A stretch of DNA of 63,567 nt, filler included, from Klebsormidium nitens (Eukaryota > Plantae > Klebsormidiophyceae), in NCBI GenBank assembly GCA_000708835.1. It is 7 parts of 7 records of this genome, joined end to end, with 100 filler letters (N's around TTAATTAATTAA, not from the genome) between each part and the next. Parts side by side here need not be neighbours in the genome. Positions count along the whole stretch, not along the records: positions 25,207 to 36,730 come from DF237963.1; 6 more parts are not named here. One strand, 5' to 3'. Both the position numbers and the translations under genes were made by a program. Positions 24,755 through 61,169 of the stretch are shown one piece after another (the stretch's first letter is position 1; each line of letters opens with the position of its first letter). Below the pieces are notes generated by a model, which searched no databases, was not told the DNA's origin, and worked only from the letters and a program-made list of their open reading frames with translations.

Positions 24755-25447
24755 GCTTAAAAATCTCGTAAGAACTCACATGCAATCCTCAGGGCCGCAC
24801 ATTTTAGATTGTGAATGTCTCTAGGCCAAACAACAATTATGTACAAAGGAAGCTCGTAATCCGAAGAAGAGCCTCTTATGCGTTAGGAACTTTGCAGCAC
24901 CGATCAAGTCGTGGGATTGAAGGTTGTTGTCTATCCCCTGTTGCTTGCGCAATGGAGCAGTAAAGTGGCGCATACAAGACAGATGTCTGGCTTCCGCTTG
25001 TACGTTTCCCTGTATACAAAGATGGCTACTCTGTCTCGAGCAGCATGTACAATTGGCTTGTACAACCTGTGTGATGCGGAATGACAACGTTTTATGGACA
25101 AACTTTNNNNNNNNNNNNNNNNNNNNNNNNNNNNNNNNNNNNNNNNNNNNTTAATTAATTAANNNNNNNNNNNNNNNNNNNNNNNNNNNNNNNNNNNNNN
25201 NNNNNNCACATGGATGGGGCAAGTCGGTGATACCCTTGCAAGCGCGGCGCCTCCTTTGCACAACATTCTGCCCCTCAATCGTCCCATTCAGCACCAGTAT
25301 TCTGTCGTGTTGTCTGAAAGGTGCTCACTGCAGTCCGCGCGGCTTCAGCATCAGCTGGTCTCATGGCGTCGTGTTGTCTCGAAAGGGGCCAGACTGAGGT
25401 TCTTCTTTGAGTGCGGTCGTAAGTAGCTCGTTCCTGCTGTGCTGCAG

Positions 25448-28400
25448 GCCCGCGAAGAGGTCAAGCTGCCATTCAAAGTGCCCGACAGACTTCACGAGGG
25501 TTTCAGAAACCCCCGCGTGATGTCTGAACGCGGCACCGAGCGCAGCTCCCAGAATTCTGAGTTTGTCAAGGCGCGCATGCTGGCGCTGCTAAGAGAGCGC
25601 CTGCACCCCACCGCTTGCGAGGAGGGCGAGGATCGCTACAATTACAGCGATCGCACAGAGCCCTGCTACACGGGTCGGATCCACGAAAACCGTCAGAATC
25701 TGAGATGCTTCCTCAACCCGAACGGCAAGATCTATGCCCTCTGCTACAGCCAGAACACCGAGGGTGGGGACTCGGAAGATCCCTGCGTCAGCACAGCGTT
25801 TTGCCTTGGAGACCTTTACGAGGACGACAACTCGTACGAGAGCGGCGCTGTCCAGGTGGACCTGGAGCACCTCAGGCGGGTTCCCGACGCGTCGACCCCT
25901 AGGCTCGTGTCCGAAGTCGCAGCTGGTGTGAGGAGTGCGGACGACGTGATGAAGCTGAATGCGGTCACCAACGAGTGAGCATCACTCTTTCGATTTGCAG
26001 GCATCGTCTTTGCCGGTTGAGGCTTGAAGCATAATCTGTCGGTCTGCAGTACAGGTCGGTCAATATCTGTCAATGTCTGTTAATGTCGGTCTGCGAAACA
26101 GGCGCGCTTGCTTTCTGCGGGTTGTGAACACCCTTGTCAACCTCGTTTTCATAATAAAATCGGCTATCACACCAATTGTCGAGGCGCAAAGACTTTCTCT
26201 TTCTGAGAGAAATCTGAATAAAGTCCTCCCTGGCTCGGCTGATTCCAGGCCCCTGATCGAATTGATGCCAAACCAGTGAAAGGTGTTTGCTTTCAAGGCC
26301 CCCAAAACATCATGCTGAGTTTTTCAAGAGCCCCATAGGACTCTTCTCGCTTTGTGTCTTGAAATCTTTCACTGCCGTCCAGCCGGGTCCTCAGCAAGTG
26401 TCGTCATCTGCTCGCTCGTTTTTTTGTTGTCTTAGCTGACACAGTGCTGCCCGGATTCGTGTAGGTGGGTCGCGGGCACGTTTCCGCTGCTCGGCATCAG
26501 GTCCGGCGTCAACACCGGCAAGACGGTGTTCTGCGGGGCGGTCGGGGACGAGCTCTGGCGAGCCAGCGACCGCCCCATGACCACGATCATGATCACATAC
26601 CGTGTGGCGCAAGCCCAGGACCTCAAGCTCCGCTTTCCTCGCACCGTGAACTACCTCGACCTGAAGGCTGACCACGCGGACGAGTGGTTCTCAGATCCGC
26701 GTGATGTGCGCGTCCTCCTGACGGCGCTCCAATGCCGGGAGAAGTTCCCTGAGGTAGTGGTTCAGGTGGACAGCCTTCTGCACCTCCGGCCGGAAGGCAT
26801 CGGCGAGGTTGCTCCGTTCGACCTCGTGATCCTGGACGAGGTGGCCAGCATTCTTGCGCACCTCTCAGCGGCGACCCTGAGAAACGGCATTGAGACCAGT
26901 GAGCTGCTGCTGGAGATTGTGCGGCGGGGGAAGCGCGTGTTGGCCATGGACGATGGGTACGGCCAGCGGGAGCACGACTTCTTCCAGCTCGCAAACGTGC
27001 CCGGAAAGCTCATCATCAACACGAGAAGGGCAGCGGTGGGTCTCTCTGTCTCTATGTCTCGTGCAGGGCTTCCTAGGGGTCAAGCGGCTATTCAGCAAAT
27101 GCTCGTACCGGGCAAGTTTCAGGTGTACCACAAAAGGATCGCTTACTTTTTAAGAAAGAAACGCATTGCTTTGTGGTACGCCCCTCCCTTCCTTTCGCCC
27201 CCTCTGCTGCTGGGGGCAACACGGCCGTACCAAGAAACATTCACGTGTACCACAAAAGGACCGCTTACTTCTTTAGGAAGAAAAGCATCGCTTTGTGGTA
27301 CGCCACCTCCCATTTTTAAGCCCCCCTCCGCTGGTGCGGGCAACTAGTTGCTCAGGCTTGCTTAGAACCGAAGGCTTCATTCGTGGTGTGCAGCTGCTTT
27401 TGGTCATGCTTTGGTGAATCATTTCCGTACCGATTCATGCGCAGGTACCCCTGACCTTCCTCGTGTGTCAGGATGAGGAGAAGTGGCTGGCGCGGATCGT
27501 CGCTGATCTCGAAGCTGGCAAGAACGTGGTCGTCGTCAGCATGTCTGCGCGGGTCCTGGACCGCATCCGGGACCGGGTGACGAAGCACCGCGGGCTCGGG
27601 CTCGCAGACGGCGACATCCTAATCCACAAGGCCCTGAGCGGTGGCGACAACACGGCTCTGCTGAGGAACGTCGCTGTCAATTGGAAGGTCCGCCTGCTCA
27701 TGTACAGCCCGACCGTGGAGGCCGGCGTGAACTTCGACGAGGACTGGTTCCACACCAAGTTCCTCTACATGTGCATGAAAAGCACAACGGCCCGTGCAGC
27801 CTGGCAGGCGACGCTGAGGGTGCGGCGAACCGAGAGCTCGGTGGTACACTGCTTCGTCCAGTCATCCATCTCGGTGTTGCTGTACTCTACGCCATTGATC
27901 CCGGCCTCACGCCTTCACACCTCCGAAGATCAGGTGAGCAAACCCTCACGTGAATAGAATCCCACGCACCCCTCTCTGCTTGACTCCCGTCGCTAAACTT
28001 TCCGTGCTCGAGCTGTTTGGACTTTCACGTGAACACTGACCGCTCGGGAGTCTAAACACACGCACCCCTCTCTGCTTGACCGCGGCGGCTCAACTCTCCG
28101 TGCTCGAGCTGTTGAAGCTTCTCGTGAATCTGCAATCCTCTTCGATATTCGAAGCTCGGTGTGCCTGTTGTGATTCTGATGGGTCTTTTGGCAGGGCATG
28201 ATGGCCACGACACCGGAGGCATTGGATGCCGACGACGACGACGAGCCGGATCCACAGGTGACCGCATCTTCTCCTCCATGCGCCTCATATGCGCCTGTCC
28301 GCTTACTTGCAGCTTGGTGGGTCAGCTTGTTTGGTGGGCCAGCTTTGGCCATGGGCCAGACATGGTGGCCAGTTTTGGTGGGTTGGCCTTGATGGGCAAT

Positions 28401-30504
28401 GCCTTGTGGCCAGCCTTGGTGGGCAGCCCTGGTGGGTCCGTTCAGCGTCTTTCTTTTCGGATATTTTTAAGAACTCAGAGGCCGGTTTGTGGTGCAGCGC
28501 CGTCAACTACAACTTCTTTGAGAAACTTGGAGGAATGGTTGAGCGGCCCCACAAGCAGTCATCACCACGGCGGTGTACCACGTTTCAATGTCTTTCTTCT
28601 AAGAACTATTAGGCCACTTTGTGGTACATCGCCATCGACTATGACTTTTCTGGGAACTTGGTGGAATGGTCGGGCGGCCCCACAAGCAGTGGTGTACCCG
28701 GTTCATTGTCCTTCTTTCTAAGAACTAAGAGGCTAGTTTGTGGTACAGTGGGTCAGCCCCGGTGGATCAAGCGTGGTAGACGAGACACAAAGCCCATCGG
28801 CGCATGAGGCTACACCCGTTAAATGAGCTTCGACCCCAAGTTGACAACTCCTTTCTCTTTTTCGCTACTAGGAGCCCGGGCTCGATCGCTTGGACCAGCA
28901 AGTTGCCGTCGATTCTGTCCTCGACGACGCTTCTCTACCGCGCGGTGGCGAGGGTGCTTCTCGCGGTGGGTCCTCCAAGCGGGCCAAGGTGGGAAATCTA
29001 TGAGTTCGACGCGCCTCTTCTGATTTAAATAAGCTATTATGGTTTCCCGGGAATTGAAGAGATTCCTCCTGGGAAGCAAACAGAGAGTGTGCGAGAATGC
29101 TAGGGTACTCTCACAGAGTAGGAGAGGCTGGTCGCGTGCTCTCAATCCCGAGGAGGACACATATTGTCCGGCTGACAAAACAAGGAACCACATCTGATGA
29201 AGACGGTAGCATCAGCAGCACCTGGTTGCCTACCACTGTGCGAGAAGCTCCGCTCAACCTAATTATCCATTTCTTCACAGGGGCTCTTTGCGCCTCCGCG
29301 GCGAGTGACCACGGCTGAGACGTCGCAGTACCTGCAAGTCTGCAACAACAGAGCGACGGCGGCATGGAGGCGGGAATGGACACAGACCGAAGATCGTGCG
29401 AGGGTCGTTCGTCTGATCGAGGACGGCCCCCTCTTCCGCGCTTTTGCGCACACCGAGGCGGAGCGGCAGAACTCAAACGCGCGACTTCTCCACGAGTTCC
29501 AGCTGCAAGTCGCTCGTGCTGGCCATGTGGTCGAGATTGAGCAGGTCGAGGAGCTTGCTAAGAAGAAGAGGAGGCCAAAAGGGTTGGACCCAGATGCGGT
29601 CAGGATTATCGAGGCGAGGGCGATCGATGGGGCAGAGTATGAGAGGGTGAAGCGGTTGGTTCATGTGAAGAGGGATAGCGGGTCGCAGCATCTGGAGGTG
29701 ATGCGTTACGAGGCCTGTCAGTATTACGGGCTCAAGGACATTGACGAGCACTTTCTCAGAGAGACGAAAGCCCACTACAAGGCGCCGTTCTCGGAGCAGC
29801 TCGACTTTCTGTTGAAGGTGCTGCTTCCGGGGAAGTTTCTCGATGAGGGGGCCGTTGCTCGCAAGAGCCACGAAGTCGTCATGGTGCAAACGGCCCGGAA
29901 TCTGCTCACGGGCGTTATGGGCCTAGCGCATGCCTTCGACGTGGGCGGCGAGGCCCGGTCCCTACTCGCAGGCGGGCTCAAGGACAGGCTGGAGCGCTCG
30001 GACCTGTTTGAGGGCCACCGTAAGCGGGGTGGTGGGAAGGTGGCGATGCGAGAGCGGCCCGTCTCTCAACTGTTCGGCATCCAGCTCCCGAAAGTGCGAG
30101 AGGGAAAAGATGATCTCGAACCCCGGCAATGGAAGGCGGTGATGGACGGAGTGCTCAAACGCATGGGCCTCAAGCTGGGGAAAGCGATCGAGGTCAGCCG
30201 CCCGCGACGAGGGAAGGGGAAGGAGCACGAATCGGGGGCCGGAAACAGCGACTACAAGTGGAAGCTGGAGGCGAAGAACGTCCTTCGGATGGCCACGCTC
30301 GTCAAGCTGCAGGTCCGGGAGGTCCCTCGCGTCTGGCAGCATCGGCGAGAGCTGGCGCCCGCTGTACGAGAGTTCCTCAATGAAGTGGATGCCAGCGGTC
30401 TCGATTATTTATTGCGTAGGCCATCTGGTGACCCTCCGTTAGAGGACCTGGGCCCGCCGGCAGGTACGGAGGACACGGATGAGTGTATGATTGTGGTCCC
30501 ATGA
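25448..30504 (+). CDS. UL9/origin-binding-protein-like SF2 helicase with N-terminal primase-type zinc finger; 5' end missing (gap), about 996 aa recovered
   Basis: Exons 25448-25974, 26465-27035, 27445-27933, 28195-28257, 28872-28988 and 29281-30504 join in frame without stops (2991 nt). Motifs: I RSGVNTGKT, Ia ITYRVAQA, VVQVDSLLHL, II DLVILDEVASILAHL, III VLAMDD, V LMYSPTVEAGVNFDEDWF, VI QATLRVR. These parallel UL9-family motifs as recalled (Pfam Herpes_ori_bp). Upstream C-H-C-C pattern: PCYTGRIH...IYALCYS...DPC. Confidence 0.8.
27125..27301. repeat. Two 55-bp palindromic units (GTACCACAAA-35 bp-TTTGTGGTAC) in helicase intron
   Basis: Units at 27125-27179 and 27247-27301, period 122 bp, in reverse orientation relative to the copies at 30.8-31.1 kb. 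Confidence 0.9.
27962..28117. repeat. Intronic ~55-bp direct repeat pair
   Basis: CACGCACCCCTCTCTGCTTGAC...CCGTGCTCGAGCTGTT occurs near 27963 and near 28060. Confidence 0.85.
28305..28746. repeat. Intronic TTGGTGGGCCAGC-like minisatellite followed by ~120-bp tandem units with GTACC...GTGGTAC palindromes
   Basis: Degenerate GGTGGGC repeats at about 28315-28440; palindromic units at 28575-28627 and 28694-28746; partial unit ending near 28497. Confidence 0.8.
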
Positions 30505-30729
30505 TCGGCTATGGAGTTGTTCGTTGGAACTTGACACAACTACCGCATTGGCACAAGTCACTTATTGATTGAAAGCCCTCTAAAATCTCAAAGGAAGCTT
30601 TATGGCAATTCTTGGGTTGCAGCATGTAGCTCCCTTTTTGATCTATTGAGCGCATGTCCGACCAATTCGAGTGCACATCATTCGCTGATCACATGAAACG
30701 TTGTATTGGTTTCTTAGTAGTCTAAGACA

Positions 30730-31114
30730 TTCGCACTTTTGTGGTATACCTCCAAGTTGTCGGACGTGCCCCCTTAAGCGGTCCGACCATTCAACGCATG
30801 ATCGAGGCGTACCAAAATAAGATGTATATCTTCTTTATAAAGTAATCGGCCGTTTTGTGGTACACCTCCAAGTTGTCCGATGTGGCAGCGCGGCGCCCTT
30901 AAGCGGTCCGACCATCCTACGCATGATCCGCGCGTACCAAGAAATGGTGTGTTACTTCTTAAGAATCTAAGTGGTCCTTCTTTGGTACACTCTGAATCTT
31001 GCAGGGTATGGCTGGACGGCCCCTTCCAGCAGTCCAAGCATCCAATGCGTGATCCGCGTGTACCAAGAAACGATGTCTTTCTTTCTAAAGAAGCAATAGG
31101 CCGTTTTGTGGTAC
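30730..31114. repeat. ~125-bp tandem repeats each carrying a 55-bp GTACCA...TGGTAC unit
   Basis: Units at 30809-30863, 30934-30988 and 31060-31114; partial right arm near 30740. Confidence 0.9.
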
Positions 31115-31296
31115 ACTTCAAAGTTGCAAGGCATGGCCGATCTTGCCGCACAGTCCGATCTTCGAGCGGGTAATCAACCATATTCGGAACCCTTGGTTTT
31201 GCGGACCGAGCATGCACGCACATAGGGAGAGGGTTGGAAGACTTAGAACAATGTGGGGCACCCTCTTCGTCATCATTCTCGATTCGAAGGTCCATC

Positions 31297-31839
31297 ATGT
31301 CCGCCGCCGCCCCCTCGCATGATGCCGCACACTCAACAGCATCCTATATGCCACAACTTTGGAAGCGGGATAAGGGTTGCTTCATTTGCCTCGAACGGCA
31401 TGCCAATGCCTCAGCGACTTGCAACAAGAGCTTCATGTCGAAGCAAGCCTTGGAAGGTCATCGGAAGCGGATGGGGTGTCAGCCTTGGAAGCTCCCGAGC
31501 GATCGTGCGCCCTCAAAGTATGATGGCCTCGAGCCAAGAGCTTCCCGTCAATTGAAGCGCCAGAGCAACACCGCCGCAGTTGCAAAGTATCGCCGCACTC
31601 TTGAAGGAGAGCGCGCGGTCTTTCGCTCACGACACATGGCAAAGTACCGCATCTTGGCTCGCAGCGCCATCCCCGCTCCACCCATGCCAAAGGCACCGGA
31701 GTACACGCCCCCGCCATTGTCGTGGCTCATCGCAGGCGCCGAGCTTCTTCCATGCGAAGCCTTGGAAATGTTGGATCGTGGCAAGATTGTGTTGAGCCAC
31801 AAGACTTGGTCGGTGCGCTTCCATCCTGACAAGATCAAG
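31297..31839 (+). CDS. Hypothetical protein exon with QALxGH-type zinc finger, bZIP-like basic segment and J-domain-like HPD motif; 3' part unresolved
   Basis: ATG at 31297; contains TCNKSFMSKQALEGHRKRMGC, LKRQSNTAAVAKYRR and HKTWSVRFHPDKIK; donor GTAGGT at 31840; copia inserted 122 bp downstream of the exon end. Confidence 0.55.
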
Positions 31840-31961
31840 GTAGGTGCCACGAATTCTTCAATTCCTTGAAGTTGGAAAAAATAGCGTGTACATCTCCGAG
31901 AATTAGTGTACATCACTCAAAATATATAGTCGATTGGACAAAGATTCGTGTACATACGCAC

Positions 31962-32349
31962 TGTTGGATTGTGACGAGACAATCCGGACGCCAAACATTA
32001 GGGTTAGTAGATTAGGGTTTGTGGGTTTGAGTCTAGATCGTAGGGTCAGGAGTAGACCCGGCCTTGGGTCGATTGTAGGCCGTCGATATTGTGACTCAAT
32101 GGTTAGAGTCGGAATTGAATCGAGTTGGACCCTAGCCTAGGTTGCGTAACTCGGAGTAAGGGGAGTACCCTAGATCTGGAAGACTCTAGAAGTTGATCTG
32201 GGTATGCAGGAAGTTAGGAACGGGACCTGACATGAACCTGCATCATAATAAGAATGTGTCTACGTGCAGTTGAGAGTTGAGGGCGCCTCCCCATGTGCTT
32301 TGTGTGCACCTCTGCATCCATGTGTGCTGTCTCTAGCTGATTTCCAACA
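31962..32349 (+). repeat. 5' LTR of copia element (388 bp)
   Basis: Starts TGTTGGA and ends TCCAACA (7-bp inverted termini), immediately followed by the PBS. Confidence 0.85.
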
Positions 32350-32365
32350 GGTTATGGGCCCACCA
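32350..32365 (+). other. Primer-binding site for a half-molecule of initiator tRNA-Met
   Basis: GGTTATGGGCCCACCA is complementary to the internal UGGUGGGCCCAUAACC segment of plant tRNA-iMet as recalled, not to the tRNA 3' end. Confidence 0.85.
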
Positions 32366-32486
32366 TTGCAAGGGTGAATCTGCTGTGAAGTTAGCGTTGG
32401 GAGAGAAGCCGCGTGGTGTAGAGAAGTTGTCTTGTGAGAGGGTGAATTCTTGAAGCTTGAGGGAGTAGAGAATTCAGAAGGCAACG

Positions 32487-35400
32487 ATGGGGAGCTTAAA
32501 GATCTCGATGGAGCCTCTCGGGGAGGGGAACTACCACTCGTGGTCGATCAAGATGAAGAGTTATCTTATCACCAAGAGCTTGTGGAGGGGGGTAGAAAAT
32601 CCATCGGAGAACGAAGAGGAGTCAAAGCAGGCGTTGGCTCTGATAACGTTGAACGTGTCAGACCATCTGCTGGGGAGCCTGTCAGAGCTGCAAGATGCTG
32701 GGAAAGCGTGGAAGCAGCTAGAGAGCACTTTCAAGAGCAAGAGCGTGGCTCGGAAGTTGCAGCTAAAGAGGGAGCTGCAGACACTCAAGATGAAGGGAGA
32801 TGAGAGTGTCACTCTCTATATCACACGGGCGCGTGATATCTGGCAGGAGCTGAAAGCTACGGGTGAGAAAGTCACTGATCAGGAGCTTGCATGGAGTGTG
32901 TTGACCGGGTTGCCTAGCTCGTTTGACGTGTTGGTAACGGTGCTAGAGACTCAGGCTGAGGATCAGTTAACGGTAGATAAGATCTTGCCTACTCTGGTTG
33001 TGCATGAGCAGAGGTTAGGAGGATCTGGAGGTTCCAGTGAGGAGAGGGACACGGCTGTAGCGTTCGCGGCCAGCGGGAAGGGTCGCAAGAGCTTTGGGGG
33101 CAAAGGGGCCTCGGGAGGTACGAAGGGCTCTGCCCGAGGGGACGTGAGTGGCGTGAGGTGCAGGAAGTGTGGGGAGCTTGGGCACTTTGCGAGGGACTGC
33201 ACCCAGGAGGTCAGGTGCAACAATTGCTTGCAGCATGGCCACATGGCGAAGGAGTGCAGGAAGCCACCCACGTGTCTCAAGTGCGGGAAGTCGGGGCACG
33301 TGGCCAAGGACTGCAGAAGCGGGGGCAGTTCTGGGGGCCCGAATAAGCGGGGAGTGGCGTTTTCTGCGGTGGCCGAGGACAGGGGCGGTGCAAGCGTCGA
33401 GTGGCTGCTGGACTCGGGGAGCAGCGAACGTCTGACGGGGAACAAGGAAGTCTTCAAGACGTTCCGGGCAATCAGCAAGGTGGCTGGGCGTATCACGTTT
33501 GGGAACGGGGGGGTCCTGTATGCAGAGGGGGAGGGGACCGTCGAGCTGCAGTGCAAAGTGCCGGGTGGTGAACAGCTCGTAACCCTCACCAACGTGAAGT
33601 ACATCCCAGGTATGCCGGTGAACCTTGTCTCGGTGGGTTGCGTAGAAAGTAGAGGAGCTGTGGTTGTGTTCAGGCAAGGCGGGAGTCAGGTCTTGCTGGA
33701 CGGTGATGTCGTGATGGAGGCTAGACTGTCAGAGGGGGTCTATGTCATTGAGATGGCCGGGGCTGTGTGCAACGTGGTCAGGAGCGAGTCGGCGACGTTG
33801 TGGCACAGACGGCTGGGGCACGCAGGGTTCGAAAACCTAGCAAAGATGGTCGAGAACGGCTGCGTGAGCGGGGTCAGGGTTAGCGCGGATGAGTTTCGAG
33901 GGGAGTTAACCCGGGTCTGCGAGCCGTGTGTGATGGGAAAGCAAACAAGAGCGCCCTTTCCGGCGAAGAAGGAGAGCGAGACGGAAGTGAAGGGGCCCCT
34001 GGATTTGGTGCACACAGACGTGTGTGGCCCGATGCCAGAAGAGTCGATTGGGGGCAGCCGGTTCTTCGTGACGGTGCTCGATGACTACAGCAAGCTGTCG
34101 GTGGTGACGCCGATCCGGAGGAAGAGCGAGGTGAAGGACGTGTTAGAGGGGGTGTTCAACCGGTTAGAGACGGAGACCGGCAAGCGGGTTAAGCGGGTTC
34201 AGAGTGACCGGGGGAAGGAATACCTCAACAAGGAGATCAAGCAGATGTACCGGGGCCGGGGGATCATCCAGCTCGCACATCGGCTCGGTACAGTCCGAAA
34301 GAGAACGGATCGGCAGAAAGTCTTAACCGTAGGCTGGAGGAGAGGACACGGGCGATGCTGGAAGACTCGGGGTTGCCGAGCAAGCTGTGGGCGGAAGCGG
34401 TGGTTAGCGCTAACTACACACGAAACCGGACGCCGGTGAAGGAGCACGGGAAAACCCCGCTGGAGATGCTGACGGGCAAGAAGCCGGACCTGAGCAGGCT
34501 GCGGGTGTGGGGAGCACCAGCCTACATGCACGTGCCGAAGGGACTGCGCACGAAACTGGAGCCGGTGAGCCAGAAGGGGTGGTTCGTGGGATACGAACCG
34601 GATTCGACGGGTTACAGGTTTTTGCGGAAGAAAGACGGGCGGATCTTGGTGACGAGGGACCTGATCGTAGACGAGGGCGTCGCAGGGGAAAGCGTGGTGG
34701 AAGACGAGGTGGCAGAGCCCAACCCGGGGAAGCCAACCGGGGGAGAGGGGTCGGGGGAGTCTGCGCCTCGGGAGGAGAAGCGGGAGGCAGTCGAGGAGAT
34801 TGACCTGCGGAGCGACGATGAGGAGGAAGACGGGCAGCGCTACCCAACGCGGGCGCACGTCGTTCCAGCGCGGTATGCCAACGTGGCGCGGGCACGTGGC
34901 GGTGACGCGTGGCAGACGGAGAATACCTCCGTCGTCGTCGAGCCGAGCTCCGACGCAGGGAAGGAGCAGGGGGGTGCTCGCGGCCCTAGTCGTGTGAGCC
35001 CCCCTGTCTCAGCTGGTGCGGGGGCTACTCCCACGGGAGAGGCCAGTGCCGGCAAACGGGGTGAGGGCCATAACACGCAAAATACGTTGGGAGGCCAAAA
35101 TGGGGCCAAAACGTATAGTCCGCCCCTAGAGACACCCAACGAGGGTTCGGGGTTGAAAGAACCCCAGTCGTACCAGGAAGCCGTAGGGGGAGAGCAGAGT
35201 GAAATCTGGCGGCAGTCCATGGACGACGAGATGCGGAGTCTGCTGGAGAACGGGACGTGGGAGTTGGTCCCGAAGCCTGAGGGGGTGAAGCCGGTCCCGA
35301 TGAAGTGGGTTTACAAAATCAAGCAGGACGCAGCGGGAAACATCGAGCGGTTCAAATCGCGACTGGTGGCGAAGGGGTTTCTCCAGCGGCAGGGGGTGGA

Positions 35401-36685
35401 CTTCGAGGAGGTGTACGCGCCGGTGTCGAAGCACACGACGCTGAGGGCGTTGCTGGGAGTCGTTGCGGCGAGAGACTTAGAGCTGCACCAGCTGGACGTC
35501 AAGACGGCGTTTCTGAACGGTGAGCTGGAGGAGGAGATTTACATGCAGCAGCCGCAGGGGTATGAGCAGGGTGGACCGAAGACGGTGTGTCGTCTGAAGA
35601 AGACGATTTACGGGTTGCGCCAGGCGCCGAGGGCTTGGCACCAGAGGCTGAAGGCGGAGCTGGGGGAAATCGAGTTTCAGGCCTCTGAGAGCGACGCAGC
35701 GCTGTTTACGGGAGTAGTAGACGGAGAGCGGGTGTGGGTAGTCGTCTGGGTGGACGACATTCTGATCGCAGCGGCGGGGGAGAAGAGGTTGGCCAAGGTG
35801 AAGGCGCACCTGTCGAGGAAGTTTGACGTGCGTGACCTGGGACCGGCGGAGTACTTCCTGGGGATGGAGCTGACGCGCGACAGGCGCGCGCGCACGGTCA
35901 AGCTGACGCAGAAGAAGCTGACGAAGGAGTTGCTGGGGCGGTACGAGCTGGAGGCAGCAAAGGCGCGAAGCACTCCGCTGTCGTCGGGGGAGAAGCTGCA
36001 GAAGGAGGGGGATCCTCTTGACACCGGCAAGTACCCCTACAGTGAGTTGGTCGGGAGCCTGCTGTATCTGAGTGTGTGCACGCGGCCGGACATTGCGCAG
36101 GCAGTTGGAGCGCTGGCGCGCTACATGTCGGGGCCGACACAGGAGCACTGGCGGGCAGCGCTTGGGGTGGTGCGCTACCTGTCCGGGACAGCAGAGCTGG
36201 GAGTGACGTTCGGGGGGAGCGCAGAGCCGCTGGTGGGTTATGCAGACGCAGATTATGCGGGGGACGTGGACAGCCGCAGATCCACGACCGGGTACGTCTT
36301 CCTGGTGTACGGGGGAGCCGCAAGCTGGTCGAGCAGGCTGCAGCCCACGGTGGCAGCCTCAACGGTGGAAGCGGAGTACATGAGCGCGGCGAGTGCCGCG
36401 AAGGAGGCGCTGTGGCTGAGGAAGCTGTGTGGAGATTTGGAGCTGCCCGGGGGAGCTGTCCAGATCTACGGGGATAACCAGGGTGCGCTGCAGCTGCTGA
36501 AGCACCCGATTGCTTCGCAGCGCACCAAGCACATCGACGTGCTGCATCACTTTGTGCGAGAGAGAGTGGCTCGGAGGGAGCTGCGGTACGAGTACGTTCC
36601 GACGAAGCAGATGGTGGCGGACGTCTTTACTAAGCCGTTGGACCCGGGCCAGTTCAGAGCGTGCAGGGAGATGCTAGGGATGTAA
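32487..36685 (+). CDS. Copia gag-pol polyprotein with one frameshift near 34270
   Basis: Gag start NYHSWSIKMKSYL; three CCHC knuckles; protease WLLDSG; integrase LWHRRLGH, CEPC, HTDVCGP, QSDRGKEY and (after the frameshift) ENGSAE; RT QLDVKTAFLNG, YGLRQAPRAW, VWVDD; RNase H ADADYAGD, YGDNQGA, TKHIDVLHHFVRE. Confidence 0.95.
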
Positions 36686-36934
36686 TCGAGAGGCAGTGTA
36701 GAAAGAGAGATAATGTTCGGCGTGGGGGAGNNNNNNNNNNNNNNNNNNNNNNNNNNNNNNNNNNNNNNNNNNNNTTAATTAATTAANNNNNNNNNNNNNN
36801 NNNNNNNNNNNNNNNNNNNNNNNNNNNNNNCTCAGCCCCCCCCCCCTCATCAGAATACCTACCCCGCTGCCGCGCGGGCCAAGCTTCAAAGTTCGACGGT
36901 ACAAATTACAGTTTCATCGAAACCGTCGCCCCGG

Positions 36935-37512
36935 ATATACAGGAAGTTTACGCTCTCTAAGCTACGCTCTCTAAGGATAGCGACGATTTCAGGAATTGCA
37001 ACGATTCCACCGTGGCCACTACCCTTTGAAGTTTGCACCGGGGCAGCCTCCTGGGACAAGAACTCGACGGCGCGGATCGATCGAGCTCTGGAAGAAAGTT
37101 GCCCGTCCGTAAGTTAGCTGCGTGACCGGTCATCGGTGCCAGGTTCATCATCTGACCGGAGGGCGCTGAATATAGCCAGCGAAAGCCACCGAAGCAGCCG
37201 GTACGTTCCTGGTGGTCACCTGCCAAGACCTCGGAGTGCGGGCCCGGGCAACGCTGACCCAGTCCGGACACCCCCCTGGGACACTGAATTTGTACCGCGG
37301 AATTAAACTGGCCGGTACTGACTGGTGGCGACCGGCGTTTGTCAATGCTCACTGCACTCGATGCGAACCGTCGATTTCAGGCCCGTAAGTATATGGACGG
37401 CAACAGTCAGTTAGATTGCTGCCACGCTGGAAATTGTCGCTACGTCAGCAAAGTCTGCAATCGGGCGAGTTTAGAGAGCGTAGGGCTTAGAGAGCGTAAA
37501 CTTCTTACATAT
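36935..37512. mobile_element. MITE with imperfect TIRs and 8-bp TSD (hAT-like)
   Basis: Left end ATATACAGGAAGTTTACGCTCTCTAAG matches the reverse complement of the right end ATATGTAAGAAGTTTACGCTCTCTAAG; CGCCCCGG direct repeat at 36927-36934 and 37513-37520. Confidence 0.8.
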
Positions 37513-37560
37513 CGCCCCGGCCCCAGGGGGACCAAACGCCTCAGGTATTAATAGGTTTGC

Positions 37561-37687
37561 CTCCTGAACCATGTGCCAGCAGCCAAACCCCTCATTGCCC
37601 CAACCCGAAAATTGGTGGAATCAAACCTCCGAAGGGTCTTGTTTGTAACCCTTGAGTTTTGGGTTGGGGCAAGAAGGGGTTCAGGAG
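37561..37687. repeat. Small foldback element
   Basis: CTCCTGAACC pairs with GGTTCAGGAG; TTGCCCCAACCC pairs with GGGTTGGGGCAA. Confidence 0.7.
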
Positions 37688-37704
37688 CTATTTTGTGCTA
37701 ATTA

Positions 37705-38092
37705 GGCCACGCGAAGTCAATATGTTGTTTCCGGTCCACCCCCTTCTGGGGTGGGTCGGTCGGTCGGCAGAAAATAATAAATAAAGTTTTGGGCTGATAT
37801 AGGATATTTCTTCGCATTTTGCACAAAAACTGACCCAAAAATCCAACATCCGCGATTTGGGTAGTAATTTTGGCCCAAGAATCCGTTCTTCCTGACGGAT
37901 GAGAGCAGAACTTGTCGAATTCGTCAAGTTTTCCCTCTTGATGTCGAGACTCACAGCCAATTTGACCAATTTTAAGGTGCATAAGTGGCATATGACCTGC
38001 CAAAATCCAAATTATTATATTATTGTTTTTCAAAATCTTCCAAAATTTGGGTCGGTCGCGGACCGGAAACTACATATCGACTTCGCGTGGCC
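37705..38092. mobile_element. Tourist-like (PIF/Harbinger) MITE
   Basis: 33-bp TIR GGCCACGCGAAGTC(A/G)ATATGT(T/A)GTTTCCGGTCC with 2 mismatches; TTA on both sides (37702-37704, 38093-38095). Confidence 0.88.
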
Positions 38093-38325
38093 TTAAGGAG
38101 GGTTAACCAGGCAGAAATGCCTAAACTGCTTGATAACCAGCCACTAGACCCAATCTACATGCCAACCGGGACCTACCGAGCACTGGGGACGCTTTAAAAG
38201 GCAATCTGGACCGTTCATTGAAGAGAGATTTCATCCGACGGCACATAACATGGTGTCGGCCCTTCAACTGGTGTTTGGTCCCCCTGCCCGGCCCGGTTGG
38301 CAGGCCGCAGAGTGGGGCAAAACGT

Positions 38326-38735
38326 ACAAAACTTGTGAACTCCTTTCGAAAGTTCGGATGCGGACGGTCTTTGTCCAGTGTTTTGGGTAGTACCGGCGCG
38401 GATTGGGATTGGCGGACGGTATGCACCGTTTAATACGAGTACGGTACCGGGTAAAGCAACCGGGACACTCTCTGTGACATTAGGGTTAAGTCACAAAGTA
38501 CTGATGGTGTGTTAGGGTTACGCCACTTCCTGGGACGGTTTGTTAGGGTCACGTCCCTTCCCTGTGACTGCTCTCAGATTAGGGTTCCCACTAACGGCTG
38601 AGCACTTATTCCTAGGATTTTAGTGTGGTTAGGACCACCCGGTTGGTAGGACGACGAAAAATACCGGTCGCAAGCTTTGACCGGCGACAGGAACCGTCCG
38701 CGTCCGAACTTTCGAAAGGAGTTCACAAGTTTTGT
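38326..38735. mobile_element. Foldback/MITE-like element with 42-bp inverted repeats
   Basis: ACAAAACTTGTGAACTCCTTTCGAAAGTTCGGA(T/C)GCGGACGG at 38326-38367 and inverted at 38694-38735; no clear TSD. Confidence 0.75.
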
Positions 38736-38877
38736 GCCTCTTGCGCTAGCCTGTCACTGGGGCAAAACTATCAAAGTAGACTCCTTTTGTTAGTGTCTCC
38801 GCCACTCTGAGTGGTGTGAAGCACTCTCAAGCACCTGGAAGCACCTGAATTATTGCAGTCTTTCAGCGGTTAGTAAT

Positions 38878-39065
38878 GAGACTGACACTGACATTGACAC
38901 TGACAATGACATTGACATTGACATCGACATTAACATTGACCCAGGGCACTCTCTGTGACATTAGGGTTACGTTGCAAACCTGTGACGGTTCACGGCAATC
39001 GACGAGCGCTTTGTTAGAGTCACGCCATTTCCAAGTGACATTAGGGTTAGTCACTGACAGTGACA
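38878..39065. repeat. (TGACAY)n hexamer run plus GTGACATTAGGGTT repeats
   Basis: About 10 hexamers at 38878-38940; CTCTGTGACATTAGGGTT near 38471 and 38951; GTGACATTAGGGTT near 39035. Confidence 0.8.
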
Positions 39066-39145
39066 ACCGGGCGGAGTTCTTTTGGTTTTAGTGTTGTAGG
39101 CCACTTATAAGTCCGGACCCGATTCCACCCGTACTAGAAATTGTA

Positions 39146-39599
39146 CCGAGGCATGTCCTGGGCTTGGATTTCCGCGGTGGAAGCAGTTTCTGCGTGTTTC
39201 CGCAAAGCTTCCGCGGCTCTTCCGCGCTGCTTCCGTAGTGGGTCCGCGCATCCGCAGACTTTCCGATGTGCTTCCGCTGTCTTTTCCGCGTATGTGGCCC
39301 TTATGTTTCTAGCGTATCATGTGAGTTTTTGTATGCTTCATACTTCCGCGCACTATAGATCCGCATAAAGTTCTGCACCCTTCCGCACGCATCCGAGTGC
39401 TTCCGCAAGCATCCGCACATTCCGCGTCCATCCGCCTTTCCCATTTGCATGCCTTCGCATGGTTTTCACAAGCTTTCGCAATCTTCCGCATCTTTCCGCA
39501 AATTACCGCGGTCTTCCGCCATAGCTTCCGCGCTTTCCGCGAACATTTCCGCAACGCTTCCGCGGTGGAAATCCGAGCCCAGGACATGCCTTGCAACGG
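39146..39599. mobile_element. TIR element filled with about 25 (T/A)TCCGC repeats
   Basis: AGGCATGTCCTGGGCT(T/C)GGATTTCC inverted at 39149 and 39591; outer TA-CCG...CGG-TA ends; dense same-strand TTCCGC array inside. Confidence 0.8.
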
Positions 39600-40517
39600 T
39601 ACTTCTTACAAGCTTCCATTTGGGTTTAGCTTCTCAATCTAGGCAGCCCTCCCCGGCTACCTTCTTCTTCTTGTCGTACGTAGACACCCAATCAATAACC
39701 CTCATCGGAGTTAGAAGCAGATTGATCCGATTACGATGAAAACTTAAAATAGCAACAGCCCAGGTGCAAGACATCTTCCCTTCCTTACTGTACGCTGCGC
39801 TGACCGCAACGTGAGTGACGGTCCGTGCCCCCCTTTCTGCTCGGTAATTTGCTCATTCAAGACGCTTGATTGCAGAACTGTGACGAANNNNNNNNNNNNN
39901 NNNNNNNNNNNNNNNNNNNNNNNNNNNNNNNTTAATTAATTAANNNNNNNNNNNNNNNNNNNNNNNNNNNNNNNNNNNNNNNNNNNNGGTGGAGGAAGTG
40001 GAGGCAATCTGCCCCTGGTGGTGCGCCGATCCGGTGAGTGGTCAGCAGATGGAATTTGGGGACAGGAGTTTGTGTTTGAAGGTGCACAGCGCGCAGATTC
40101 CAATATTGATGACTTTGCAATAACTATCTGAACTCACGTGCCAAGGGCCGTAGTTGCAAGGAACTTCGGGACTGTCTGACATTCTGATAGATGCAACGTG
40201 ACTTAAGATCTTCGAGGTAGCCAGTACATACAGACAGTATATCTTGTATGTTTTTCACTGCAGTCCCTGTGCTTTTGCTTTGATCCACCCTAGTGGCGTT
40301 CAAGATATGGCTTCCAACAAATTGTAAGGGCTTGATGTGTCTTTGAACGCGCCGTAATTCCGATAGAAGGTTTGAATATGAGTTGACCGGATATTGCGCG
40401 CAGAGTATTGTGAGTTCGCGAGTGAATTTTAAGAACTCTTACAGCTTTTTGAAGAACAGGATAGGGAACTTTTGGTTTTTGACGACATAGTGACGATTAT
40501 GCATCAATGTCTTGTAG

Positions 40518-60146: not shown

Positions 60147-60246
60147 TGATTGGCACGAGGAGTCTGGTTACGTGCTCAAGAGGAGAAAAGAATGGCGAGA
60201 ATTCAAGCTCCTCTTGAGCACGTAACCAGACTCCTCGTGCCAATCA
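60147..60246. repeat. Perfect 39-bp inverted repeat with 22-nt loop
   Basis: TGATTGGCACGAGGAGTCTGGTTACGTGCTCAAGAGGAG at 60147-60185; exact reverse complement at 60208-60246. Confidence 0.97.
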
Positions 60247-60751: not shown

Positions 60752-61122
60752 ACTCTTCTTTTGGAGAACCTGCGGACGTAAGACAAGCTAACGCCCTTGC
60801 TCAAATGCAGCTCCAGCTGCTTCAAGTTCCACTACTACCTAGTACAGACTACGCTGGTTCTAGATAGCTAAGCTTCTTGTGTTTCTTCTAGCTTGCGCAT
60901 AATACGCGTTCAAGTTTTCATGGTGCTCTTTGTGGCAAACTGCAGTCTCGAAACTGCACGGGCTGCTTGCCCGGTACGGTACAATCTCATCTGGAGCGCG
61001 GTTTACAAGTAGGCATTTGCTCTCAGGTCCCCGGGCAGTACAAGAAGCCCGGCGGGTTGACCGCGCTTTCCGGCAGATGGCCTTCCTAGAATCGTTTTTT
61101 TTTTTTGAATTGTTTTTTAAAA

Positions 61123-61169
61123 TAGGGTTTTAGGGTTTTAGGGTTATAGGGTTTTAGGGTTTTAGGGTT
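61123..61169 (+). repeat. Telomere-type (TTTTAGGG)n tract, about 6 units
   Basis: TAGGGTTT TAGGGTTT TAGGGTTA TAGGGTTT TAGGGTTT TAGGGTT, next to a gap. Confidence 0.9.

Follow-up and report, generated by a model that had tools for sequence, protein, structure and literature searches.

Palindromic units in and behind a UL9-like primase-helicase gene of Klebsormidium nitens as candidate origin sites of a multicopy nuclear element

Introduction

Among the closest described counterparts of the DNA considered here is oriS of HSV-1 (herpes simplex virus 1), in which two inverted boxes surround an A+T-rich spacer and are bound by the superfamily 2 (SF2) helicase UL9, the origin-binding protein (OBP), whose DNA-binding domain comprises residues 536-851 (PMC12543377, in the part cited). 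Here, palindromic units of similar layout are described from the alga Klebsormidium nitens (GenBank assembly GCA_000708835.1), in a stretch of 63,567 nt (hereafter the window) of which positions 25207-36730 are derived from record DF237963.1. The window is eukaryotic and its pieces are joined by N linkers of 100 bp. The units lie within and directly behind a gene for a UL9-like primase-helicase, and we put at roughly 0.55 the probability that they serve as cognate binding or origin sites for a nuclear element that derives from a virus and probably replicates itself.

Proteins combining an AEP (archaeo-eukaryotic primase) domain with a UL9-like helicase include mimivirus R8, pF1055L of African swine fever virus (ASFV) and those of ostreid herpesvirus 1 (OsHV-1), some mriyaviruses and SmDNAV (PMC11253617; bioRxiv 10.64898/2026.08.29.747986), and the portions of these two papers cited here name no binding sites for the giant-virus-type members. 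Tandem arrays of short units are known from the baculovirus homologous regions (hrs), which act as origins and enhancers and, in the virus described there, consist of 64-bp units with 24-bp palindromes (PMC4535591, in the excerpt used), and from the Firehammervirus phages CP220 and CP21, where dispersed arrays of 72-86-bp units occur in both orientations and in variable copy number and are discussed, in the sections of PMC4546147 cited, in terms of recombination and not of origins. No description of the Klebsormidium element or its repeats was found in the literature searched, though catalogues of endogenous viral regions (for instance bioRxiv 10.1101/2025.04.19.649669) or repeat databases may list the loci. 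The alga can be cultured, it has at least ten copies of the gene, and the candidate site is short and clear-cut, so that the question of what such a helicase recognizes is experimentally tractable.

Results

The pattern GTACC-N40-48-GGTAC was found nine times in the window against 0.11 expected, a count reached by none of 100 shuffles. Seven of the nine matches are imperfect palindromes starting at 27125, 27247, 28575, 28694, 30809, 30934 and 31060, 55 bp long in five cases and 53 bp in two. The two others, 58-bp matches at 38390 and 45794, do not fit a profile built from the seven and were rejected. The same profile added two partial units, at 28446-28498 (E 1.8e-5) and 30692-30751 (E 0.28), and gave nothing further below E 3 in the window. 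A first-pass annotation had listed seven complete and two partial units, seen nowhere else in the window, with inverted arms at near-constant spacing around an AT-rich core; the starts proved exact, and the unit centres are indeed 68-84% A+T. The units are grouped as follows.

27104-27344, minus strand: cluster 1, in the predicted intron 27036-27444 and in the opposite orientation to clusters 2 and 3; its two monomers, with palindromes at 27125-27179 and 27247-27301, have a period of 122 bp
28446-28746, plus strand: cluster 2, partial unit 28446-28498 and palindromes 28575-28627 and 28694-28746, in the predicted intron 28258-28871
30692-31135, plus strand: cluster 3, partial unit 30692-30751 and palindromes 30809-30863, 30934-30988 and 31060-31114, between the helicase stop codon and the following open reading frame (ORF2)

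The periods are 132 and 119 bp in cluster 2, and about 116, 125 and 126 bp in cluster 3. The inversion of cluster 1, also proposed in the first-pass annotation, is apparent from the likeness of units, which reaches 65-89% when they are oriented as assigned but 57-76% when they are turned round. The spacers between palindromes are homologous, at z 7-19 inside a cluster, z 7.9 from cluster 3 to cluster 2 and z 4.5 from cluster 3 to cluster 1, other pairs being near 0-3. The true repeat is therefore the whole 119-126-bp monomer, of which the palindrome is the best-kept part; the three tandem clusters stand as first described, but what is repeated in them is the entire monomer and not the palindrome alone.

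Columns invariant among the seven units are the outer boxes, G-x-GTACC and TGGTACA, an internal TG, a CTT and a few A/G positions. The outer boxes are kept at nearly fixed spacing while the interior of the unit drifts, and in the five 55-mers 15-19 of 27 mirror positions pair. With one mismatch allowed, the half-site TTTGTGGTAC has 10 matches in the element (6,754 bp), all of them falling inside full or partial units, and none in the 56,005 bp outside it.

The gene in and behind which the clusters lie was modelled with six GT-AG exons and 997 codons, identical to residues 606-1589 of K. nitens KFL_010140010 (P0001). Its splicing is predicted from this sequence model, and its 5' 605 codons lie beyond the contig edge. 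The exons are listed below; clusters 1 and 2 are in predicted introns and cluster 3 is behind the stop codon, in keeping with the earlier placement of the units in and just after the helicase gene.

25448-25974, plus strand: predicted exon covering the last part of the primase region and a Cys/His segment that putatively binds zinc
26465-27035, plus strand: predicted exon with domain 1 of the SF2 helicase, including Walker A and B; matches Pfam Herpes_ori_bp (E 1.1e-8)
27445-27933, plus strand: predicted exon, helicase domain 2
28195-28257, plus strand: predicted small exon, acidic linker
28872-28988, plus strand: predicted small exon, linker
29281-30504, plus strand: predicted last exon, end of the helicase and a C-terminal domain resembling the UL9 DNA-binding domain

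A final exon at 31007-31096, overlapping the last unit, is given in the database model KFL_010140010. It was rejected because the ends of the paralogues agree with the frame that runs unspliced to 30504, which suggests an annotation error.

Ten close gene models of K. nitens, this locus included, are 53-96% identical over the regions searched and form one clade (FastTree, with nine of the ten in the tree). An additional model on scaffold 549 is 39% identical, and intronless relatives lie on contigs of 13-37 kb. Long-branch attraction may explain why the distant copy P0020 joins the close clade, and no origin is claimed for the gene. Full-length copies consist of a long N-terminal extension, AEP primase motifs, a Herpes_ori_bp SF2 helicase (E 1e-8 to 1e-11) and the C-terminal domain. 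AEP motifs I-III are present in five of the nine close paralogue models examined, so that primase motifs and helicase are combined in one protein as in the viral AEP-UL9-like family; P0001, the model of this locus, shows motifs II and III and lacks motif I, in a stretch outside the window. At E 0.001 the helicase protein matches 1,586 representatives, many of them metagenomic single open reading frames (ORFs) of 1,030-1,170 residues, while the match by sequence to UL9 in PDB is weak (E 0.011).

Structure models of the last exon had predicted local distance difference test (pLDDT) scores of 85.6 and 86.0. Among 48,161 solved chains the best match was HSV-1 OBP bound to oriS (Z 6.4, root-mean-square deviation 4.8, 165 residues aligned), over residues 547-832 and hence within its DNA-binding domain; the runner-up reached Z 4.1 over 51 residues, and a longer model of the C-terminal domain matched HSV-1 OBP at Z 6.1. 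In BFVD, giant-virus origin-binding proteins lead the matches to the last exon (E 7.6e-7), and as judged from the models these are nearer relatives of the C-terminal domain than herpesvirus UL9. A motif ending in ESNPGP or a variant, which resembles the 2A ribosomal-skipping peptide, was seen between the Cys/His-rich N-terminal part and the primase-helicase in P0001, P0003-P0005, P0007-P0010 and P0016, outside the window. In P0020, the distant copy, a ubiquitin-like domain is found instead.

The distribution of the units over the genome was assessed in run X1 (103.4 Mb, 108,628 contigs), which is from the same organism and agrees with the window at every position of a 3,267-nt stretch. Cluster 3 (30560-31260) was matched at 80% likeness by 36 X1 contigs, three of them at 99% or more, leaving 33 others; this count is a lower bound, as units within the window are themselves 65-89% alike and diverged ones are undercounted at that threshold. 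Among the matches listed (8 of 39 pieces), one contig of 683 nt carries three or more units in tandem, and the match of another extends over both spacer and unit. For three clusters per 6.7 kb to result from random placement, some 46,000 units would be required; if there are 33-1,000, two further clusters are expected in 6.7 kb with a probability of 2e-6 to 2e-3 (P 0.002 at 1,000). At 33 other matching contigs, random scattering would be too sparse to account for three clusters in 6.7 kb, and relative to this low number the units are strongly concentrated at the element; we infer that they are co-located with other helicase copies as well. Matches to the unit pattern elsewhere (one viral, four metagenomic) were dismissed as chance, all being single, without a helicase and at background by the unit profile; the viral one is within coding-like sequence.

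Related copies differing by a few percent were found in runs X5, X6 and X7. Relative to the window, X7 skips 126 bp at 30923-31050, one cluster 3 monomer being missing, and X5 goes back from 27226 to 27124, apparently with one extra cluster 1 monomer. Summed contig depth was about 440-490 over the units, 150-415 over exons and 11-14 on unique parts, a rough check which gives no copy number. ORF2 is also multicopy in the X1 contigs. The only longer homologue of ORF2 found, KFL_005490055, is a model in which the C-terminus of a distant helicase is fused to a 67%-identical ORF2, so that helicase and ORF2, to judge from the gene models, are neighbours at two very different loci. Ten close copies in one clade, together with this second linkage, point to an element rather than a lone gene. 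Two further features belong to this description.

25207-25218, minus strand: contig edge; the X5 and X7 relatives carry an extra inverted unit-like stretch directly left of 25218 (25218 joined to 30949 on the opposite strand, with a side of 42 letters), outside the window
31234-31839, plus strand: ORF2 exon, C2H2 zinc finger, start uncertain, multicopy

The sites on the left (the upstream unit of X5 and X7, and cluster 1) face one way and clusters 2 and 3 the other, a polar arrangement that with four clusters is not significant.

Compared with HSV-1 oriS, the Klebsormidium units share the two inverted boxes at a fixed distance around an A+T-rich spacer and the linked UL9-family SF2 helicase. 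The predicted C-terminal fold is similar to that of UL9 at a modest score. The scale also agrees, Box 1 to Box 2 of oriS measuring 49 bp (counted by hand from the oligonucleotide given in the cited part of PMC12543377) against 53-55 bp here, and the likeness to the oriS layout remarked on in the first-pass annotation is thereby supported. The box sequence, however, is unrelated, the GTTCGCAC boxes of alphaherpesviruses are absent from the units, the protein is without RVKNL, and no separate Box 3 for an oriS* hairpin was seen, half-sites occurring only within units. Further, nine units in tandem arrays contrast with three origins per HSV-1 genome, the primase is fused to the helicase, and the gene is a nuclear algal one with predicted introns. 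At most, the units would work like oriS, yet they are no herpes origin.

With mimivirus R8-type proteins the Klebsormidium protein shares the order of domains and the AEP motifs, and its C-terminal domain matches giant-virus members in BFVD. R8-type genes are viral and, as far as the cited portions describe them, intronless, whereas the Klebsormidium gene has a long N-terminal extension with the 2A-like motif, predicted introns and ten close copies, with no capsid gene in view. The likeness to baculovirus hrs, as these are described in the excerpt used, is one of layout only, namely several separate clusters of tandem repeats with an imperfect palindrome in each repeat. Baculoviruses use other initiators. 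The Y' elements of yeast subtelomeres are likewise multicopy and nuclear, and carry a helicase gene, tandem repeats and an origin of their own. The helicase of Y' is, however, of a different family and its origin is that of the host origin recognition complex (ORC), and no telomere linkage was seen for the Klebsormidium element.

No closely related locus was found among the viral and metagenome contigs searched, the only related one being the distant L002, a terminase-bearing phage-like contig found by helicase homology alone (22-27% identity). Right upstream of its UL9-like helicase gene, at 86-685, L002 carries four tandem units made of inverted 16-bp boxes 60-73 bp apart (eight boxes against 0.28 by chance), unrelated in sequence to the Klebsormidium units. 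From this one A+T-rich contig end, the L002 units may be regarded as a candidate origin. Firehammervirus phages also carry a distant homologue of the Klebsormidium helicase (22% identity).

Discussion

The reading of the palindromes as cognate sites is preferred because the predicted C-terminal domain has the origin-binding domain of UL9 as its best, though modest, structural match, the units are concentrated at the element, and their layout and size are like those of oriS. Several observations weigh against it. The Z score of 6.4 is lower than the level at which the tool itself regards a match as sure, Foldseek gave no match for the last exon in PDB, and HHV-6 (human herpesvirus 6) UL9 appears in BFVD only at E 0.65; in addition, the RVKNL motif of UL9 is not in the translation and helicase motif VI carries Leu where Gly is usual. 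As regards distribution, the undercounting noted for X1 bears on the estimate, since with 5,000 units the chance of two further clusters would rise to P 0.04, and two X1 paralogue contigs spanning the intron 27036-27444 show no unit match at 80% among the matches listed. The layout beside the helicase was found in one of three phage relatives inspected, L002: the 71-bp arrays of CP220 lie 3 kb from its helicase and are of another build, without a long two-box dyad in the array inspected, and Vibrio phage SRILMA has no annotated array, nor room for one, beside its UL9-like helicase gene. Among the ORFs scanned there is no integrase, transposase, capsid or packaging ATPase gene, and no element end or terminal repeat was seen: on the left the sequence stops at a contig edge, and on the right it is broken by a Copia element and then by another contig edge. 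Last, unrelated tandem repeats also occur in the introns, so that tandem duplication alone is common here.

This last point is the starting one for an alternative that we consider unlikely, in which the monomer would be a minisatellite internal to the element, or else a relic in decay, that travels with the element and is no longer, or never was, read by the encoded protein. The same introns hold a 96-bp repeat pair at 27944-28113, single in X5 and X7, and a 13-bp array at 28354-28436; two of the units are partial, two fold no better than shuffles, and unit number differs between copies, as X7 and X5 illustrate. Neutral decay would not, however, spare the boxes, which are invariant at a near-fixed distance at three to four sites and whichever way the units face, though the spacers have diverged to z 0-8 between clusters. 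Folding bears also on the highly improbable view that the units are RNA hairpins, of pre-miRNA or snoRNA type, processed from the introns. As single strands, five of the seven do outdo their shuffles in folding (z -2.1 to -4.8), but pairing is without covariation (five pairs with two-sided change against 4.1 in shuffles, 122 of 500 shuffles reaching the score), a G-G mismatch is invariant in all seven, Rfam gave no unit match to E 1, and the clusters face both ways within one transcript. A snoRNA suggested by the ACA after the arm was rejected, as orientation, Rfam and covariation are all contrary to it. Since the boxes are fixed at a near-fixed distance, the interior drifts and covariation is absent, the units fit protein-bound double-stranded DNA better than RNA hairpins.

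It is quite unlikely that the monomer is an independent short non-autonomous transposon, either a micro-MITE (miniature inverted-repeat transposable element) or a tandem-forming one of Helitron or Replitron type, inserted repeatedly in the gene. Both arms contain a TA, clusters occur in both orientations, and similar sequence is present in at least 33 other X1 contigs. The TA is nevertheless not a target duplication, because the symmetry continues outside it, the G and C beyond being invariant in all seven units, with Y before and A after; no copy has the TA duplication and unrelated flanks of a Tc1/mariner (Stowaway-like) micro-MITE, homology of the spacers extends from cluster to cluster (z 4.5 and 7.9), and the mariner-like micro-MITE offered as an alternative in the first-pass annotation is not sustained. 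The clusters are, moreover, without bounding terminal repeats, and copies are too few for random insertion unless targeting were strong. About as improbable is recognition of the palindromes by another protein, which could be the zinc-finger product of ORF2, a recombinase that the element carries unseen, or a factor of the host. ORF2, with its C2H2 finger, is linked to the helicase at two loci, cluster 3 is directly upstream of it, and no integration enzyme of the element was seen; GTAC is, besides, the core recognized by plant SBP-domain factors. Against this, the scale is that of oriS, with an A+T centre between two inverted boxes separated by about 33-43 bp, the helicase itself has, by its structure model, a likely DNA-recognition domain, and the layout recurs beside the phage homologue of L002, where Pfam finds no ORF2-like gene.

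If the palindromes are the cognate sites of the helicase, its C-terminal domain would, by analogy with HSV-1 oriS, bind the two inverted GTACCA-type boxes, upon which the A+T-rich centre would open and the SF2 helicase unwind the DNA. The fused AEP domain could then prime synthesis and give rise to extra or extrachromosomal copies of the element, so that the palindromes would serve, or would have served until recently, as replication-start sites. New monomers may arise in place through tandem duplication, in the manner of baculovirus hr arrays, and those inside the gene may be tolerated because predicted splicing removes them. More doubtful, and put forward only tentatively, is the wider proposal that Klebsormidium carries capsid-less self-replicating nuclear elements in which a viral primase-UL9 helicase has gained spliceosomal introns and herpes-like origins are housed within these introns, amplified independently of host origin licensing. 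Were the sites origins, a nuclear mobile element in a relative of land plants would replicate by a herpes-like initiator, and introns would be a safe place for the cis sites of the element.

Other features of the window

The ORF2 exon ends in HPDK, which resembles the J-domain signature; Pfam gave no DnaJ match. Behind it, three GTGTACA words at 31872-31955, with a period of about 62 bp, resemble the arm of the palindromic unit. The ORF2 gene is interrupted by a Copia long terminal repeat (LTR) retrotransposon at 31961-36730, with a 5' LTR at 31961-32349 and gag-pol frames at 32487-34439 and 34355-36685. The X5 and X6 contigs part from the window sequence at 31962, consistent with the absence of the insertion there.

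In the rest of the window, nested pairs of inverted repeats in 36831-39887 (36934/37513, 37704/38093, 38317/38744 and 39149/39591) look like small DNA transposons. A 100-bp palindrome is located at 60147-60246, and a TAGGGTTT array at 61122-61169 closes its contig.

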